From positions 1 through 64,000 of the IMG/VR virus record IMGVR_UViG_2778261352_000001: 64,000 nt of DNA, one strand, 5' to 3'. The position numbers and the translations under genes were made by a program. The notes beneath the pieces were generated by a model. It saw only the letters and a list, made by a program, of their open reading frames with translations. It searched no databases and was not told where the DNA came from. Shown here one piece after another: positions 12,206-38,014 of the stretch. Within the stretch, counting starts at the first letter, position 1. Each line of letters starts with the position of its first letter. The DNA is from a virus (lineage: Duplodnaviria; Heunggongvirae; Uroviricota; Caudoviricetes).

Positions 12206-15193
12206 ATGAGCTTAAGCGATCAGGTGGTAATGGCCACCAGCATAGAAACGCTGATCGAGCTGCTTAAGAACCTGCCCGATTATGGGCGGGTTTCGTATGT
12301 GGTGACAGCGAAGGGAGACGAGGTAAAAACAGCGTTTGATATCGTCGATGCCTCAGCTCTTTTGGTATCCAATACTCTGGATGGGAAAATTAATCCTGAC
12401 TATCCCCAGGAACTTCAGCCGCGCGACCGGACCCGCGCATCCAGCCTTCTTCAGGTTAACCAGATATCCAAAGATTTGCGGCCTGCTCAGCTTACTGATT
12501 CCGGTTTATCCAGCCATGGTGCGCCGATAATTGGTGAGGACAATGCCGTTGAGTCAGGTAATGGACGGACCATGGGGATCATCAAAGCCTATCAGGACGG
12601 CAATGCGGATCGGTATCGTGAGTACCTGATTGATCATGCGACCGAATTCGGCATACGACCTGAAAAGGTCGAATCAATGACGGCTCCGGTACTGGTGCGC
12701 CGCCGGTTAACTAAGGTTGACCGCGTTCAGTTTGCCAAGGACTCAAATATTTCTGATCTTCAGGAAATGGCAGCCAGTGAAAAGGCTTTTGTTGATGCCG
12801 ACAGCATAACACCGGCGATGATGGCGCTTTTTAACCCGTCAGAAAGCGGAGATCTGCTTAGCCGCAGTAATGACGCGTTTATTCGCGGATTCATGACGCA
12901 AGTTGGTGCTACACAGGCGGCTGGACTTGTAACTGAAGATGGGCGACCAACACGGCAACTTGTTGACCGGATACAAAACGCGATCTTTGCCAAGGCATAT
13001 AAGGATGCGCGCTTGGTAAGGATGGTTGCAGAAGAACCTGATCCGGATATGCGTAATGTTCTGACGGCGCTTAATGCGGCGGCCAATGATTTTGTCCAGA
13101 TGCAGGCTTTATCAGGAGAAGCGCACAAGCAGGCTGTGACAACCATCGTTGATGGCATTGAAACAGCTGATAGCCTCGATAAAAAGGCGCTGGCGGCATT
13201 GAAAGATGCGGTAGACCTGGTAAGGCAATCGAAGGAGTCAGGCCAACATATTACCGATGTTATTGCTCAGGGGGATATGTTCAGCGAAACAGCCCCGGAA
13301 GTGAAAGCTCTCGCGTTGTTCATCGTCGCGAATAACCGTAGCGCGAAGCGTATGGCCACCGCCTTTAAATTGATGGCTCAACGTATCAATGATGAGTTAC
13401 AGCACCAGGGCCAGGCGCTGGGGGATATGTTTGGCGGTGGTGATGTGTCGTTACAGGAGATCCTTCGCCAGGTGTCTCAGGAACTGGAAAACGAAGGCAT
13501 GCAAGGGATATCCGGCGGTCTTTTCGAGTCCGTTTCCGGCGGTAGTTACAACGGTGTTGCTCCATATACCAGTTTGCTATTACATCGGGCATCCGGCATC
13601 AAAGACATTATTCATCTGATCAGGCTGCTATCCCGCACCGATCCCCAGGATGAGCAGCTTGTACAAGTGCTTGCGCATTTTGTCCGAATGCCTGTTGCCG
13701 ACGTGAAAAAATGGTGCCGATTATTCGGTATCAGCAATTCGTTACTTCGCGGATTGTTAAATCACGCATCCTCCCTTGGGCGCGATGGCTTTGACGAGAT
13801 AGCGCAGGCGATAAAAAACGGAGATATGCCACCAGCTATTGACTGGTTTTCCATTCGCCCAACCAGGGTGAAAGCATTCCTTAGCGCGGCGCATTCGGCA
13901 TCACCATTGGCAGAAATGGTTCAGAGGCTGTCGCTCATATTCACAGACCATACCGCGTTGGGTGATCTGACTCTGGACGAGATGAAAGATGCCTCCATTC
14001 AGTGGGCCGATCAACAAAATGAGGTTAACTCAGACTTCTTGCCAGCATTCAGGAAGGCCGTTAGTAAAGCGGATGATGCCCGTGGGATTCTGAAGGCATT
14101 TAAGGCATTGCAAAGTCGTGTTAATAAACATGTCGGTGATATCGATGGGGTAACGGCGGAAGGCCGGGATATCCTTAAAGAGCACGGCATAACGCCAGAG
14201 TTTATTGATGAGATCAGGACTGATATGCAGCGTGAGGTCGTATCGTCCCTGCAAATCGTAGCCAGAGCGTTGGCGGATGCTAATCCGAAGAGTGCGGGCA
14301 TTGTTAACCGGGTTATTGGTGATATTGAAGCATCGGAGGGCATGGGGGCACTGAAACTCTTCCTTTCGCGAGCGTTTAATCCTAACGGCAATATTCTCCC
14401 TGGCATTATTGGTGAGGCTAAAAAGCATGTCAGTGAAGAAGAACTTGAGCAGCTTAACCAGCTACTCAATCGATTTTCATATATCCCGCAGAAACGCTGG
14501 CAAATGAATCAGCGTAGTATGGATTCGGTCTACGAGAAAGTGTTATCTGCCATGAACAGTGCGATCGCCAACTCATCCGTATCAGAAGAAAAAGCTCTTG
14601 AGTGGGCCGACTCTTTTATCACGGAAGAAGTGGAAGAAGCCCGCGCTGGACAGAATGGTGGAATAGACCTGCGCAAGGAACTTGCTGATATTTATCGCCT
14701 GACCGGCGGGAAAATATCAACCTTATCAAGGGTAATTCACCACAAGGGTAGGGCGTATGCAAATCTTAATGGTGTTGTTGCTGTCGATTTGCACGATGAA
14801 AATGCAAATGCACTGTGGCACGAGCTGGGTCATCATCTTGAGTACAGTAACCCGGGTTTGTTAGAGAAAGCCAGGTCATTCCTGAAGGCCAATGTTGAAG
14901 GGGATAAGCCATCTTTCGTTAATATCGGTGGGCGTGGCAAGCCTGAATGGTGCTTCAGATCTCGATTGAGTGATATTTATATGGCGAAGGTATACCCGCC
15001 TGTCTCAGTGAGTAATTCTGGTAAATTTCGACACAAATCTCCGACAATTTCCAAAACGTCAGCAACGGAAGTGTTCTCTATGGCTCTTCAGTTGTATCAT
15101 GACAAAGAGGCCGCTGCCGCATCACTGATGAATGGTGACGGATTGCTGGAACTGTTATTAGGTGTGGCAAAGGAGCTAAATAATGCAGATTAA
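12206..15193 (+). CDS. ddrB: DdrB-like large virion protein
   Basis: 995 aa, darA operon synteny. Confidence 0.55.
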   Translation: MSLSDQVVMATSIETLIELLKNLPDYGRVSYVVTAKGDEVKTAFDIVDASALLVSNTLDGKINPDYPQELQPRDRTRASSLLQVNQISKDLRPAQLTDSGLSSHGAPIIGEDNAVESGNGRTMGIIKAYQDGNADRYREYLIDHATEFGIRPEKVESMTAPVLVRRRLTKVDRVQFAKDSNISDLQEMAASEKAFVDADSITPAMMALFNPSESGDLLSRSNDAFIRGFMTQVGATQAAGLVTEDGRPTRQLVDRIQNAIFAKAYKDARLVRMVAEEPDPDMRNVLTALNAAANDFVQMQALSGEAHKQAVTTIVDGIETADSLDKKALAALKDAVDLVRQSKESGQHITDVIAQGDMFSETAPEVKALALFIVANNRSAKRMATAFKLMAQRINDELQHQGQALGDMFGGGDVSLQEILRQVSQELENEGMQGISGGLFESVSGGSYNGVAPYTSLLLHRASGIKDIIHLIRLLSRTDPQDEQLVQVLAHFVRMPVADVKKWCRLFGISNSLLRGLLNHASSLGRDGFDEIAQAIKNGDMPPAIDWFSIRPTRVKAFLSAAHSASPLAEMVQRLSLIFTDHTALGDLTLDEMKDASIQWADQQNEVNSDFLPAFRKAVSKADDARGILKAFKALQSRVNKHVGDIDGVTAEGRDILKEHGITPEFIDEIRTDMQREVVSSLQIVARALADANPKSAGIVNRVIGDIEASEGMGALKLFLSRAFNPNGNILPGIIGEAKKHVSEEELEQLNQLLNRFSYIPQKRWQMNQRSMDSVYEKVLSAMNSAIANSSVSEEKALEWADSFITEEVEEARAGQNGGIDLRKELADIYRLTGGKISTLSRVIHHKGRAYANLNGVVAVDLHDENANALWHELGHHLEYSNPGLLEKARSFLKANVEGDKPSFVNIGGRGKPEWCFRSRLSDIYMAKVYPPVSVSNSGKFRHKSPTISKTSATEVFSMALQLYHDKEAAAASLMNGDGLLELLLGVAKELNNAD

Positions 15194-15491
15194 AATCGCA
15201 GCGCCATTAGGCGGAGATGCCATTATCGAATTTGATGATAATGAAGAAGTTTCCGGGCGTTTAAGCATTATCTCCGGTGACATTACCGAGGACATGATCG
15301 CTGAAGCCATAGCTGGAGCAAATCCCAATAGCTATATGGGATTCGTTAACACCCTTGATGCTCCCGCAAGTGATGTTCTCCGAACGCTGCATCTTTACGC
15401 TGGCTGGTTTGTTGATTGGCCAGCAGTAGATGGTGGCGATGAGGACGACGACGATGATTTTGGTGATCATGTAGACCAGATCGTATATTGA
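15183..15491 (+). CDS. small acidic protein (last gene of dar operon)
   Basis: 102 aa, poly-Asp stretch GGDEDDDDDFGD. Confidence 0.45.
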   Translation: MQIKIAAPLGGDAIIEFDDNEEVSGRLSIISGDITEDMIAEAIAGANPNSYMGFVNTLDAPASDVLRTLHLYAGWFVDWPAVDGGDEDDDDDFGDHVDQIVY

Positions 15492-15493
15492 AG

Positions 15494-15519
15494 AAATCCC
15501 GCCAATCGGCGGGATTTTT
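15494..15519 (+). terminator. rho-independent terminator
   Basis: AAATCCCGCC-AATC-GGCGGGATTT stem-loop followed by T-run, between convergent genes. Confidence 0.55.
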
Positions 15520-15522
15520 ACC

Positions 15523-16617
15523 TCACGAGAAGCTCTTTTCTGATGTCAGCCAACAGTGCTCGTGCAAATCTCTTGGTGGTTTTTCGACAAATGCCTCTTC
15601 AGCCACATCCTGCCAGGGGATTTGTTTAGCCCATTCAGTTATAGCGTTATGGTTTGCCGAGAATAACGGTATTGTATAGGCCTTCAGCCAGTCTAATGTG
15701 CTGGAGTTGTGTTTTTGAGCGTGATGTTTCGCATGGTGTTTGGCGATCACGATCGTAGGCACTACCCATTTACTACCGTCAGTCATTGTGAAGTGCATAT
15801 TACGGGGAACAGATGACTTTTCCATCAACTCCCGAATCCCGGGGAATTTCCCCAAGATCAATCGACGATATTCATCGCTATTGCGCCCACCAAACTCTTT
15901 GGCTTTGAATTCAAGATATGCTTCAGAAACGAGAGGTGAATCCTCTGTGCTGAGAGTTATCGCCGTGAAAATACCAGCAGGATTGTTCTCACTATGGGCC
16001 AACCGGTGATGCGAATCATAAAAATACCCTTTCTCTCGTTCCGATGGTTTCGACAGCAACAGCAGGCGCGAATCATAACCGGTCAAATTGCCTGTTATCA
16101 CAGCATGAGCGCGGTCGCTGATTTCTGCCGCGTTAATAACGATGAAAAGATCGTGCGGTCCAGTAAAACCAGCCAGAGACTCTTCGTTATTCAGACAATA
16201 GGTTATATAGACGCATCCCCATGTTTCACTGATATGCACCAACCCTTTGTCAGGGTGTATTCTGAAATAATTGCCAAGAAAAGGGTGTTTTTGGGTAACT
16301 CGCTCCCAATAACGGAACATATAGTCAATTATTGTTTTTCGACTATCGTTAATCGCAGGAGAAACAACCACTGTACGGGAACACGAATACAGTATTGTTT
16401 GCAGGATGCTAATCACTGCCACAATAGAGGTTTCCCCAATACCATGTGGTGTGGTGGCAGTGACTTTGGCTCCGGTGTTCTTTATCGCGTTAATAATTTT
16501 TGCTTGATGAGGTGTTAACTCAATATCAAGCAACTCTTTTGCTGCCAGTTCCCAATTGTATTTATACCGTTCTATCAGTGCTAACCAGGCAGATTCATTC
16601 TGTATACGATTAATCAC
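15523..16617 (-). CDS. PacB-like degenerate terminase ATPase-domain paralogue (Walker A/B residues substituted)
   Basis: aligns by eye with PacB 1-280 (LAGFTGPHDLFIVINAAEISDRAHAVITGNLTG vs [33 protein letters not shown]); Walker A GKS->GET, Walker B DE->NA; no nuclease domain. Confidence 0.6.
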   Translation of the reverse strand: MINRIQNESAWLALIERYKYNWELAAKELLDIELTPHQAKIINAIKNTGAKVTATTPHGIGETSIVAVISILQTILYSCSRTVVVSPAINDSRKTIIDYMFRYWERVTQKHPFLGNYFRIHPDKGLVHISETWGCVYITYCLNNEESLAGFTGPHDLFIVINAAEISDRAHAVITGNLTGYDSRLLLLSKPSEREKGYFYDSHHRLAHSENNPAGIFTAITLSTEDSPLVSEAYLEFKAKEFGGRNSDEYRRLILGKFPGIRELMEKSSVPRNMHFTMTDGSKWVVPTIVIAKHHAKHHAQKHNSSTLDWLKAYTIPLFSANHNAITEWAKQIPWQDVAEEAFVEKPPRDLHEHCWLTSEKSFS

Positions 16618-17398
16618 TTTCCACCTCTTCCGTGGTGTTTTCTTGCAGTTCTGTTAATGCAGCACGACATAGGTTCCGGGCATTGGCTATAGCCACACTT
16701 TTGACTTCATCCGTCATCGTGCAGGTAATGTACTGATCGAGTTCTTCAGCGCGGATGATGCTTTTGCCAATCAGAAACTGTATTTGCCATAGCAGATCGG
16801 CATCCATAATCAGAATTTCTGCCGGGCCTTCAGGGCCAGCCGGGAAGGAAACATAAGACTGTTTGCCCAGGCCGACAACTCGACAACTTGCTTCAAGAAT
16901 TGCGCGCTTGAGGTCTGTCTTTATAACGGAAACAGGTTGATTTTCACCAGTGATTACGCCGTTGACATGGAAAGGCATGTAGCTTGAAATACGCTCCACT
17001 TTCCACACGCCAGCAAGCGATCCTTCATGCAGCACAATGGGGGTAACCGCGAGTTTCATCTCACCATATAACTGCTGGCAGATAGCTGGATTGCTGAATA
17101 CATCTAAAGGCTCACATTCAAACAGCGGCGCAATCTGCATGAGGTCCATCATGGTCATCCCTGGGGTACGAGCAGTAATGAATTTGCGCATACCAGTATC
17201 CATTGCGATCCAGATTGCTACACCATGCTTTTTGCTCACTTCTTCAGTAAAGCCAAGGTGGCACATGATGGTTTTTTCGATAGCCAGATCAGAGATAGAA
17301 ACCTTTTCGCCTGGCACTCCATCATTATTGATGGTCACTTCGACACTCTGGCCATTACGTAGGCGGTATTGAATGGTTTTAGTATTTTGTGCTGTCAT
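16610..17398 (-). CDS. hypothetical protein, operon partner of PacB-like paralogue
   Basis: 262 aa, ATG start, 8-nt overlap with downstream gene. Confidence 0.5.
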   Translation of the reverse strand: MTAQNTKTIQYRLRNGQSVEVTINNDGVPGEKVSISDLAIEKTIMCHLGFTEEVSKKHGVAIWIAMDTGMRKFITARTPGMTMMDLMQIAPLFECEPLDVFSNPAICQQLYGEMKLAVTPIVLHEGSLAGVWKVERISSYMPFHVNGVITGENQPVSVIKTDLKRAILEASCRVVGLGKQSYVSFPAGPEGPAEILIMDADLLWQIQFLIGKSIIRAEELDQYITCTMTDEVKSVAIANARNLCRAALTELQENTTEEVESD

Positions 17399-17595
17399 AG
17401 TCTTTTCTCTGCTTAAAAACTGATGTATTGCGCCTTCAGGTTGGTTAGGAATGTTTTCCCACCAGCGAAAGCAATATCTCGGGGTGTTCTATTCGTTAAA
17501 AGCGCGTGCCATTGCCAACTTTGGCGTTTGTTTGCGAGTTCGTGCTTTTGTCGGCGTCTGGACCACCGCTTTTCTTTCAGTCGTTTTTTACACAT

Positions 17596-18084
17596 TCAAA
17601 ACGGAATATCGTCGTCAAAGTCCATTGGAGGTTCGTTATTGGCGTTGCTCTGAGGTTTACCGCCACCACTATATTGCTGGTGGTTTTGAGGTTGGTTTGA
17701 TTGCCCCCAGCCATTTGAGGACTGTGAATCGTCACGGCGAGCGCCGATCATTTGCATGGTGCCGCCCTGGCTGACGATAATTTCCGTCGTGTAACGTTCT
17801 ACACCGGCGTCATCTGTCCACTTACGGGTTTTAAGTTTCCCTTCGATGTAGACCTGAGAACCTTTTCGTAAATACTCACTCGCAATTTCAGCAAGTTTTC
17901 CGAACAAAACGACTTTATGCCATTCTGTTTGCTCTTTCTGTTGGCCCGTTTGCTTGTCGCGCCATGATTCATTCGTTGCGATGCTGAGTCTTCCGACCGC
18001 GCCGCCATTTGGTATATACCTGATCTCCGGGTCTTGCCCCAGGGTACCAATCAGGATGACTTTGTTTACACCGCGTTGTGCCAC
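17596..18084 (-). CDS. ssb: single-stranded DNA-binding protein
   Basis: [23 protein letters not shown]...Gly/Gln-rich linker...DFDDDIPF acidic tail, unmistakable SSB. Confidence 0.9.
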
Positions 18085-18103
18085 TTATCTTACCTAATAA
18101 AAT

Positions 18104-18120
18104 AAATTAATTAGAGCAAT
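18104..18120 (-). promoter_or_regulatory. C1 repressor operator
   Basis: reverse complement ATTGCTCTAATTAATTT, 20 bp upstream of ssb start. Confidence 0.6.
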
Positions 18121-18146
18121 AATGTATATCTTTGAAACGTAGCTAA

Positions 18147-18166
18147 CAAGTGATTTGCATTATCCT
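18147..18166 (+). promoter_or_regulatory. putative late promoter (CAAGTGATT-N5-TATCCT)
   Basis: late-promoter 9-mer with one mismatch upstream of lyz. Confidence 0.35.
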
Positions 18167-18253
18167 GTGCCTTCTAAAGGGATCGAGTCAGTCGGTATTG
18201 GCTGTAAATGGGTGTTTGTCCTGGAGCGTAAAAAATTCGCTTATGAGGTCTTT

Positions 18254-35336: not shown

Positions 35337-36821
35337 TTATTCATTAAGCCATGCCAGAGCTTCATCAACCTGCGCTTCGTCTTCGACGCTAAGCACTTCA
35401 TCCTGGGGAACATAATCCGCCAGCATAGCGAAACAATATGTATCCCAATGGTCTGGTGAGTGCAGGTTGAGTTTTTTCTTCATATCCTCCTTACTCATCA
35501 CCTTCCATTGACCTGCGGAGTTAATCCCTACAGGGATTTTCGACGCTTCCTCAATAGTTTCATTACCCTTATCCAGTCTCATACGACCAGATTTTACGGC
35601 CTCTGCGGCTTGAACGTTGGCATAAGCACGTTTATCAAAGTACAGGCTCTTATCTTCACGGCTATGCATCTTTTTACCCCAGCGTATACGCTGTACGGTA
35701 ATACCATAATACTCGTACATCAGATCCGCCGTTGCTTTACCCAGGCCATCGCCGTCTATCGCTATGGTGATATTTGGGAATCGCTCAGGATTACATTCTG
35801 CGAAAATTTTGGCGGCAAGCTGCGTTTCTGTAACGTCTGTGTATTTCAGCATTCGATAGTTGATTACACGGCGTTTATTTCGCTGGCCGGACACCATCAT
35901 GATATTGATAACGGACTTATCCCGTCCCGTACCACCAGCAACGTCCACACATGCAAGCCAGCCCCATCCTTTGGCAATCTTGACTTTCCGCCGCGTTGCA
36001 CGTTCAACCTCATCACGTCCAAGAAGGAAGCCATCCTGTGATTTAGGAAATAGGCCGCGTACCTTAATCATGTACATAGGGTTATCACGCCCGCCGTACT
36101 CCGCCAGCTTCATTTTGATAAATGCTGGCGTTACCAGCGGTGATTCCTCACTGTTAAGCGTGATCGCCGTATAAACGCCATCAGGGTTACCAGGACGCTT
36201 GGCCAGTTTATGGTGAGTATCGTAGAAATACCCGCTTGGGCGTGTAGGCTGTGACAGCAATAAGATGCGGTTATCCAGTCCGGTAAGAGCACCGGTGATG
36301 ATACCGAAAGCTCTATCACTGACACCGGAGGCTTCATCGATAATATACAGAAGATGATCTGCGTGTTCACCTGCGAGAGCTTCTTCACTTCCCAGACGAA
36401 AGCCCTTCGGTACTACAGTCCATACACCTTTACCAGTAACTTCATAAAAAGCGGTTTCTGTCAGAACAAAATAATCAGCAAGCCATGGAAAACGGCTGGT
36501 GGCCGTAGCCCAGTTTATCTTGATGTACTTGAATATACCGGTCATTACCTGCTGAATTTTGTTCGCAACGATAATGGCACGGGCACCGGGATACATGATT
36601 ATGAACAACATGATCATGATAGAAGTCATGTCTGATTTCCCGGTACCGTGACCAGACGAAACAGATGTCTTGCTACCCTGTTCCTGCACAGACTCAATAA
36701 TCAGATCCTGCTGCCAGGTAGGTGTTTTGCCGAACAAAACATCAGCGGCAGCAATCCAGTCATAACGATATAGCGCCACCAGCTCGCGCCAACGTGGATC
36801 CGTTACGCAACTTCTGGCCAT
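35337..36821 (-). CDS. pacB: terminase large subunit PacB
   Basis: 494 aa, Walker A GHGTGKS, Walker [10 protein letters not shown]-terminal nuclease region. Confidence 0.9.
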
Positions 36822-38014
36822 TAATCATCATCCCCGTATAGCTTGCGGGTAACTTCTTCGTCTTCCTCCTCGTCTTCGTCCAGGTCTTGTTCCAGCCATG
36901 GGTCGTTTGATACACCTTCAGTATCAACATCTCCATAACCGCCTGTATCAACGATATCGGCGATTTCTTCCCTACGTTGCTCAATCCACAATGCAGCATC
37001 GGCGCGGCGGTTGGCGGCCCGTTCTCGCGCAACTTTGTCCAGATCTTCAAGAGAAGGGCCACCGACGGCAGTTTGCCTTTCCTCATCATCGGCATTTGTC
37101 TTAGGAGCACGCAGATCGGCTTTGATTTGCTCCAGCATCAGGGGCGGCACTTTCCCTCCATGCGCCTCGATGAATTCAGCCGCTTCCAGCACTGACCAGT
37201 TATTTTCACGCTTTCGTTCGTATGCCAGCTTAACAATGCCAGCTTGCCCCATAGATAAAGCGTGCTTTTCCGCCTCCCGGCTTTCTTTTCGATAGTTATT
37301 GCGGATGCTGTAAATGGTGTTGATCAGGCTGCTTATCTGCGCGGAACAGCTGTTTAGCATGCTCGCGATACGGTATTCAGGCGGAGTACCTTCATCATCG
37401 TCTTTTTGCTGATCGCGCATTTCCTGCACCAAGCGAATACACGTATCCCGGGCGTTCTCCAGCATAAGGAGATGAGAAAGAGACTTTTCCAGAAGAGTGG
37501 TTTCCAGAACATCAGCTCCGGAACGACGCAACATAGCGCGCGCGGCCTTCCGCGCTTCAACGTTATCTATCAGGTAATCGCCCGCTTCGAATTCAAAGCG
37601 TTCACCATCATCATCCAGGGTGTCGCGTTCCAGGCGATCACGTAAGGTCCGGTGGGCGCGGGTGATCACGTCATGATCATCTGAACGATCATTTATGCGC
37701 TTATTTTGGCGCTTCGCATTCCCGACTGCGGCACTGACAACGGCATTAACCCTTTGTTTTTCCGCTATTTCAGCCGCAATGTGATCACATGTATGTTGAT
37801 CATTAGAGTGATCAATGATCATGCTTTTTAGTGGCTTCCTGACTGGCTTATTTGGCTTGCGGCTGTCCGCTGTCCTGGTGTCTTCTTTGAAGGCACGGAG
37901 ATAACGACGTGCAGTATTAGGGTTAAGATTAAACTCGGCGGCATACTGTGCGATGGTGTAACCACCATCTCGCGCCAGGCGAGCAAAATTCTTCTTGTGA
38001 TCGTCCCAGGTCAC
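36821..38014 (-). CDS. pacA: terminase small/pac-recognition subunit PacA
   Basis: 397 aa, GTG start with AAGGAAG RBS, contains pac site. Confidence 0.9.
37636..37821. other. pac: pac packaging site (clustered TGATCA hexamers with Dam sites)
   Basis: two clusters of TGATCA/GATC (37636-37691 and 37782-37821) inside the 5' part of pacA. Confidence 0.65.

Follow-up and report, generated by a model that had tools for sequence, protein, structure and literature searches.

Why should a phage that encodes a complete packaging terminase carry a second copy of the terminase ATPase domain, from which the catalytic residues have been lost? This question is raised by a gene in a 64,000-nucleotide stretch of DNA (positions 1 to 64,000 of the IMG/VR virus record IMGVR_UViG_2778261352_000001, hereafter the window), which comes from a P1-like (Punavirus) phage-plasmid and is 97-98% identical to several P1-like phages over positions 15100-18200. 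The gene, here designated pacB' (15523-16617, minus strand), is an intact open reading frame (ORF) of 364 amino acids (aa) with a GTG start, and a copy on an E. coli plasmid is 99.9% identical to it. About 19 kb away, the pacAB genes (35337-38014) encode the terminase itself. PacB, the intact large subunit and representative of the parent family of PacB', has 494 aa (35337-36821, minus strand; phrog_2, E value 2e-40), and its terminase partner PacA has 397 aa (36821-38014, minus strand; phrog_1711 'terminase', E 1e-203). A large terminase gene would be expected next to that of the small subunit, but the upstream neighbour of pacB' is isaA and not pacA. We argue that PacB' is a pseudo-enzyme, and that it may serve in conflict or counter-defence by mimicking the terminase ATPase without catalysis, a reading to which we give a probability of roughly 40% and whose mechanism we infer.

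Loss of catalytic motifs and shift of constraint

The ATPase-like domain comprises residues 1-262 of PacB' (15832-16617, minus strand). It aligns with PacB residues 11-274 only (BLASTP, 36% identity over 266 aa, E 4e-57), and PacB' matches phrog_5902 (E 6e-186) and the terminase large subunit profile phrog_2 (E 2e-10). An earlier interpretation of this DNA, the sequence-only reading, had aligned the two proteins by eye and had described both Walker motifs as degenerate; these results, together with an exhaustive HMMER search, bear out the alignment, and the substitutions are exact. In Walker A (aa 56-63, 16429-16452, minus strand) TPHGIGET stands for the SGHGTGKS of PacB, and the lysine is thus replaced (GHGTGKS to PHGIGET). 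In Walker B (aa 157-163, 16129-16149, minus strand) LFIVINA stands for LYIIDEA, with loss of the Asp-Glu pair (IIDEA to VINAA; in the wider comparison, YIIDEAS in PacB against FIVINAA). The motif III threonine is gone as well, while the PacB of the window has both GHGTGKS and IIDEAS intact. The nuclease domain is absent, again as read from the sequence: PacB' ends about 100 aa past the ATPase domain, and a profile of this tail gave an hhalign probability of 0.4% against the C-terminal half of PacB, on which the tail was rejected as a remnant of the nuclease domain.

Are these substitutions peculiar to one record? Of 5426 complete E. coli genomes, 100 contain full-length pacB', in 101 records of which 99 are plasmids. 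All of the 24 copies that were extracted have an intact ORF and an invariant PHGIGET, and their Walker B stretch reads F-I-[VA]-I-N-x-x-E, without Asp-Glu. Over 18 distinct alleles, the ratio of non-synonymous to synonymous polymorphism (pN/pS) is 0.31 for the gene, 0.35 for the ATPase-like part and 0.21 for the tail; for isaA it is 0.26. Close homologues with intact Walker motifs, which would have pointed to a sequencing artefact, were not encountered, all 24 copies being degenerate. Since the degenerate motifs are shared by these copies, the ORFs are intact and pN/pS is low, pacB' is neither a sequencing artefact nor a decaying gene. The copy in phage vB_EcoM-813R1 (L003, 1947-3017) is annotated at 356 aa and its tail was matched by tblastn in two pieces with a weaker score, which points to a frameshift, or an error of sequencing, close to the 3' end. 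An antisense ORF of 174 aa inside pacB' (15994-16518, plus strand) carries no annotation in related records and is probably spurious.

The HMMER search covered 1.84 billion representatives and gave 804 hits, the best 150 of which were aligned. It returned large terminase subunits (TerLs) of 470-570 aa. Among the aligned sequences every terminase of normal length (about 470-570 aa, longer with inteins) has G-K-S/T and D-E, whereas both motifs are lost in shorter proteins of 230-444 aa that rank at the top (P0147, P0149, P0150, P0151, P0153, P0156, P0157, P0183, P0188 and P0199). All relatives at 30-52% identity are degenerate, and they make up an old, diversified clade next to the true PacB-type terminases. 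In a neighbour-joining tree all degenerate proteins except P0183 cluster there, with 68/100 bootstrap support for the core clade; owing to P0183, the full degenerate set is not monophyletic. This clade, which lies within phrog_5902, includes P0147, P0002, P0149-P0151, P0153, P0156, P0157, P0188 and P0199, and PacB' belongs to it by its fold, the loss of both Walker motifs, its short length and the co-resident intact PacB. Orthologues at 49-53% identity, namely P0002, P0147 and a gene of 368 aa at locus L007, have retained length and tail, and their motifs are likewise degenerate, in the forms PHGIGRP / IIVDSA and P[TH]GIGHKS / IVMDAA. Separately, several PacB-type proteins of 646-863 aa (P0172, P0180, P0197, P0236, P0239, P0249 and P0296) have a large insertion inside the Walker A loop (SGHGC...HNTGKS/T), which in sequence is the pattern of a P-loop intein.

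The same split was absolute among 80 IMG/VR loci: ORFs of 494-515 aa have both motifs, and the 364-aa, ~366-aa and 444-aa types (364-471 aa as longest-ORF calls) have neither. Both kinds of gene occur on several single contigs, for instance UViG_2913177423_000001 (L037 and L084) and 3300013827_000026 (L082 and L090), as they do in the window; pacB and pacB' are therefore true paralogues within one element, and every element with PacB' also has an intact pacAB. A scan of genome contigs found the tail-bearing type in only one species-representative genome. Degenerate PacB-like genes of 263-264 aa that have no tail were seen at L008 (4027-5795) and L010 (5336-6792). One tail-less gene directly follows a radical SAM gene, and another follows a gene for a Ref-like RecA-dependent nuclease with a 4-nt overlap, with an IsaA-like gene 3 kb upstream.

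The pattern of loss within the clade is selective. The Walker A lysine is present in 36 of 36 live relatives and in 0 of 11 members of the degenerate clade, and exactly the same counts hold for the Walker B glutamate. The lysine position is occupied by E, H, R, T, M, I or C, the Walker B aspartate position is hydrophobic or proline in most members, and the catalytic glutamate position holds N, D, H or Q. When the 28 positions that are at least 85% conserved in live PacB-type terminases were scored, the degenerate clade had kept 14, lost 11 and was mixed at 3. Those kept include Q38, the P-loop glycines, E147, G151, P192, G197, F199 and S227; those lost are S56, G57 and K62 in Walker A, D162, E163, S165 and G166 in Walker B, T193 in motif III, and H153, Q91 and A86. 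In the live PacB clade conservation peaks in the catalytic core; in the degenerate one it peaks at aa 16-45 (N-terminal helix) and aa 196-255 (lid region). As far as sequences can tell, this shift of constraint is the signature of a pseudo-enzyme retained for a non-catalytic job, catalytic positions having been lost and structural ones kept.

The C-terminal domain, the IsaA partner and their probable transcription unit

What has taken the place of the nuclease? The sequence-only reading had described an unrelated, His-rich tail. It is indeed unrelated to PacB; far from being an oddity, however, it is a conserved and widespread domain of about 95 aa (aa ~272-364, 15526-15804, minus strand), whose family consists of free-standing, ~100-aa early phage proteins. 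A profile search with the tail found at least 981 phage or prophage clusters, nearly all of them free-standing proteins of ~100 aa without a Pfam domain, and the domain itself has no Pfam family and no match to a solved fold. PacB' carries the family motif MPDGSxWxVP...IA..RA..YA...PLF...W...W.DV...GW..GEK over ~95 aa and matches the family hidden Markov model (HMM) with an E value of 4e-19; 8 columns are invariant among 118 family sequences. Only the fused subfamily has the His-rich stretch HHAxHHAxKH, where the wider family has RAxYYAxE. The tail also matches the C-terminal end of phrog_17928. In Cronobacter phage JK004 it aligns with a free-standing protein of 98 aa, whose gene lies two genes downstream of that for the DnaB helicase, and in Xanthomonas phages with the C-terminus of a protein of 471 aa whose neighbours are a recombinase, an exonuclease and an SSB. 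Free-standing homologues were also seen in a variable region of lambdoid prophages of Enterobacter and relatives (L098-L101, gene at ~5001-5315), between DnaB/P-like replication genes and ninB/ninG/Q, with DUF551, Ead/Ea22, dATP/dGTP pyrophosphohydrolase and Lar-like genes as neighbours. In P0168 (L102, 5001-7384) the order is reversed, the tail domain being N-terminal to a degenerate PacB-like ATPase domain in a gene cut off by that of a Tn3-family transposase (548 aa, opposite strand). That the two modules, tail and dead ATPase, are found fused either way round argues for their working together. A 102-aa gene upstream of the 444-aa relative was considered as a tail-domain gene and rejected.

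The partner gene was said in the sequence-only reading to encode a 262-aa protein of no recognisable family. Both ORFs lie where it had placed them, as an ORF listing confirmed, and neither PacB' nor the 262-aa protein gave a match in Pfam, NCBIfam or PADLOC scans (PacB itself has no Pfam match either), nor did PDB sequence searches with PacB', the tail profile or the IsaA profile return anything meaningful. The 262-aa protein (16610-17398, minus strand; 8-nt overlap with pacB') is nevertheless the orthologue of P1 IsaA: it matches phrog_2326 (E 2e-148), the gene has ~97% DNA identity to P1 isaA, and it resembles P1 IsaA over its full length (family HMM, E 6e-131) and follows ssb. We considered whether IsaA might be a PacA paralogue, as after duplication of a pacAB operon, and rejected this (BLASTP E 40). 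P1 IsaA is annotated at 320 aa (L001, 3605-4567), its start being 30 bp behind ssb. The ORF of the window is confined to 262 aa by an in-frame stop, and the RefSeq proteins of relatives have 260-264 aa.

As the sequence-only reading had supposed, P1 carries IS1-associated genes at this locus. P1 has isaA-IS1-isaB in the same ssb-hxr slot, with the same isaA but with IS1 and an unrelated isaB where the window has pacB', and it lacks the 364-aa gene; homology to P1 ends within a few bases of the pacB' start codon. IsaB of P1 (201 aa) was rejected as a relative of PacB' (BLASTP E 0.78). The locus is known as variable region RD-2 of P1-like plasmids (PMC6906374), and isaA is non-essential in P1 (PMC10695390).

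How are the two genes expressed? The pacB' GTG overlaps the isaA stop, with a GAGG Shine-Dalgarno sequence 7 bases upstream, inside the end of isaA. Upstream lies ssb (17596-18084, minus strand; phrog_44, E 1e-59), whose promoter region, including the C1 operator (P1 Op21/Ossb, 18104-18120, minus strand, consensus with 1 mismatch), is identical to that of P1. From ssb to the end of pacB', neither a further C1 operator nor a late-promoter motif was seen, and the minus strand has no terminator-like site. At the other end, a G+C-rich hairpin with a T-run (CCCGCC-AATC-GGCGGG, 15498-15519), found by eye only and not reported by the pattern scan, stands between hxr and pacB' and is a probable bidirectional terminator closing the unit. 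Taken together, the promoter and operator shared with P1, the uninterrupted stretch behind them, the hairpin and the GTG/stop overlap indicate that the unit is probably ssb-isaA-pacB', transcribed from the C1-controlled ssb promoter, the first gene being ssb. The co-transcribed two-gene operon of the sequence-only reading thus holds as regards the tight coupling of its ORFs, and is probably the distal part of this longer unit. By the same reasoning C1 would keep pacB' off in the lysogen, and the protein would appear early once the phage is induced or infects a cell. Ten matches to the 17-bp C1 operator consensus with up to 3 mismatches, against 0.35 expected, were counted in the window (at 18104, 21954, 31765, 32242, 33803, 33886, 34350, 48342, 48353 and 51875), a dispersed C1 regulon typical of P1. 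On the plus strand the unit is flanked by hxr (15183-15491), convergent with pacB', and ddrB (12206-15193) before it, and by lyz beyond ssb.

A cassette in accessory hot spots and its possible roles

The company that pacB' keeps is informative. Wherever the sequence upstream is retained, which is the case in 29 tail-bearing IMG/VR loci, pacB' is directly preceded by an overlapping isaA; L007 has the same arrangement. In 10 of the 11 loci of the 52%-identity group a Tad2-like gene in turn lies directly upstream of isaA, as it does in L007 and six close relatives (L015, L017, L018, L020, L025 and L033); it was identified by Pfam PF11195 (E 1.6e-22) and by the solved Tad2 and ModTad2 structures (E ~6e-20). 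The proteins encoded at L015 (3583-4260), L017 (3577-4254) and L007 (4332-4994) have 220-225 aa, with a C-terminal domain that is a clear homologue of Tad2, the anti-Thoeris sponge, and that also matches AcrIIA7-type PDB chains; their N-terminal ~130 aa are uncharacterised. The ssb-isaA spacer of the window (17399-17595, 197 bp) is the site at which L015 and L017 have this gene. The cassette occupies two genome positions, as it lies between ssb and hxr in the group of the window but follows cre and a dUTPase gene in the distant one, so it moves as a unit. E. coli genomes with pacB' number 100 against 599 with pacB, which corresponds to ~17% of E. coli P1-like elements. The [Tad2-like]-IsaA-PacB' arrangement is an accessory cassette in variable hot spots of P1-like phage-plasmids, and pacB' is dispensable for the phage family and is no packaging motor.

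What would such a protein do? The sequence-only reading offered a packaging regulator, a decoy and an exclusion factor as possibilities. We favour a role as a mimic in phage-host conflict over that of a motor since PacB' travels with known anti-immunity genes, and the accessory hot spot, the early operon and the Tad2-like neighbour favour conflict or counter-defence over housekeeping packaging. PacB' would be a folded copy of the ATPase domain without canonical ATP binding or hydrolysis, its nuclease domain swapped for a ~95-aa module known elsewhere as a free-standing early phage protein. Made with IsaA by translational coupling, presumably before the late-expressed real terminase, it could present PacB-like surfaces, namely the N-terminal helix and the lid region on which constraint is strongest, to a factor that ordinarily binds the ATPase domain of the terminase, while itself doing no work. 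In a situation of conflict this partner would most likely come from the host or from a rival; an immune sensor of terminase of the Avs1-3/Upx type is a candidate, which might be occupied or blunted. Terminase ATPase domains are direct ligands of the bacterial immune sensors Avs1-3 and Upx; in the contact with EcAvs2, 2800 Å² of the ATPase domain are buried and a bridging ATP links the sensor to the ATP bound there, and SeAvs3 reads terminase active-site features (PMC13601566). In its specific form, the proposal that IsaA-PacB' neutralises such sensors as an early, non-activating mimic of the TerL ATPase appears distinctly unlikely by our analysis; if true, it would make PacB' the protein-mimic counterpart of the nucleotide sponge Tad2 in the same cassette.

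Several observations speak against the mimic. Neither protein has a known anti-defence family among its Pfam, NCBIfam and PHROG hits, or a PADLOC hit. The window has no Tad2-like ORF, so the Tad2 association is known from relatives alone. Phage accessory regions are often tightly packed, and a joint function need not follow from this; the shorter degenerate relatives follow unrelated genes (for the Ref-like nuclease and the radical SAM protein), and IsaA is also found without PacB' (P1; L006). As to the sensors, a mimic without an ATP site might escape recognition by Avs2 and Avs3 altogether, and one that is recognised could trigger immunity rather than block it.

Might PacB' instead regulate the terminase of its own phage? 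It would then bind PacA or enter PacB rings as an inactive subunit and, being made early, delay or tune pac cleavage and packaging until enough PacB has accumulated. PacB' is after all a paralogue of the resident PacB, sharing with it the N-terminal segment, the Q motif and the lid region, it always co-occurs with pacAB, and its probable early expression precedes late terminase synthesis. P1 and P7, however, package without it, and only ~17% of E. coli P1-like elements carry it; the gene lies far from pacAB in a cargo hot spot, where its companions are Tad2-like and isaA genes and not packaging genes, and at 36% identity co-assembly with PacB is not assured. We consider such a regulator unlikely.

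The tail and the operon raise another alternative, in which the ATPase-fold scaffold and its tail have been re-used in DNA replication or recombination, outside packaging. The shared operon with ssb, the position of free-standing tail-domain genes just after DnaB and other replication genes in lambdoid prophages and phage JK004, and the Xanthomonas neighbourhood described above all fit this, as do the short degenerate relative directly behind a Ref-like nuclease gene and another Ref-like gene nearby on the opposite strand in L102. Yet nin-type regions are accessory and anti-defence hot spots, to judge by the Lar, DUF551 and dNTP pyrophosphohydrolase neighbours, no DNA-binding or nuclease motif was recognised, the tail has no structural match, and the gene is non-essential and patchy, which leaves a role in DNA metabolism improbable.

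A patchy, accessory gene in a family of mutually competing phage-plasmids could also serve exclusion: the dead subunit would poison the terminases of P1-like phages that superinfect or share the cell, or those of satellites with a PacAB-type enzyme, to the advantage of the carrier. Such dominant-negative logic suits a subunit of an oligomeric motor, and E. coli pacB falls into distinct identity bands (80-90% in 227 records, at least 95% in 362). The C1-repressed promoter, however, would probably keep the gene silent in the lysogen, where exclusion matters most; there is no evidence that PacB' spares its own PacB, and the Tad2-like neighbour points to host immunity rather than to phage rivals, so that we regard exclusion as quite improbable. 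A functionless, decaying duplicate kept by hitch-hiking, for which one might cite the lost catalytic residues, the absence of the gene from many relatives and the deviating C-terminus of the vB_EcoM-813R1 copy, is very improbable indeed in view of the pN/pS of 0.31, the 24 of 24 intact ORFs, the full length of all 101 copies from complete E. coli genomes, the orthologues at 49-53% identity that keep length, tail and partner, and the selective conservation of structural positions.

TerL is usually treated as a single-copy essential motor, and it is among the main patterns read by bacterial immune receptors. PacB' offers a test case for pseudo-enzyme mimicry in phage-host or phage-phage conflict, and with it a first way into two large families that are still uncharacterised, IsaA and the ~100-aa nin-region domain. 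There is also a practical side. Databases name PacB' 'hypothetical protein' or, wrongly, 'terminase large subunit' (GenBank MH422554, MH445380), and phrog_5902 ('unknown function'), which contains PacB', is matched by PacB as well (E 1e-149); such mislabelled records and the lumping in PHROG 5902 can mislead terminase-based phage typing and packaging predictions.

Comparison with known systems

A literature search found no described dead terminase paralogue, terminase decoy or PacB' family, and T4 vs.8 was the only related item and the nearest analogue described. This free-standing homologue of the T4 terminase ATPase domain activates EcAvs2 on co-expression (PMC13601566), and like PacB' it is a second, nuclease-less terminase ATPase copy in a phage with a normal terminase. 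Compared by description, the two differ in that vs.8 keeps Walker A and B (PMC13601566), whereas PacB' has lost both and has added a C-terminal domain and an obligate upstream partner.

Anti-defence islands with the anti-Thoeris protein Tad2 offer a second comparison, as the cassette of the relatives starts with a Tad2-like gene and shares with them an early accessory position and cargo that is swapped between hot spots. Neither IsaA nor PacB', however, resembles Tad2 or any PADLOC, Pfam or NCBIfam family, and the copy in the window comes without the Tad2-like gene.

Another close system is P1 PacB itself, a PacB-type TerL (phrog_2). The two proteins have a homologous N-terminal ASCE ATPase fold and share the N-terminal segment, the adenine-binding Q, the P-loop glycines, the EExLAG, GYFYDSHH and SPLV motifs and the YRxxxLGxFP domain end. 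In contrast to P1 PacB, PacB' lacks the Walker A Lys and Ser, the Walker B Asp-Glu, the motif III Thr and the nuclease domain; its gene stands not beside pacA in the pacAB operon but in an early operon, and is accessory instead of essential. PacB' is, then, no new kind of system: it is a pseudo-enzyme derivative of the large terminase that has acquired a new domain and a new partner.

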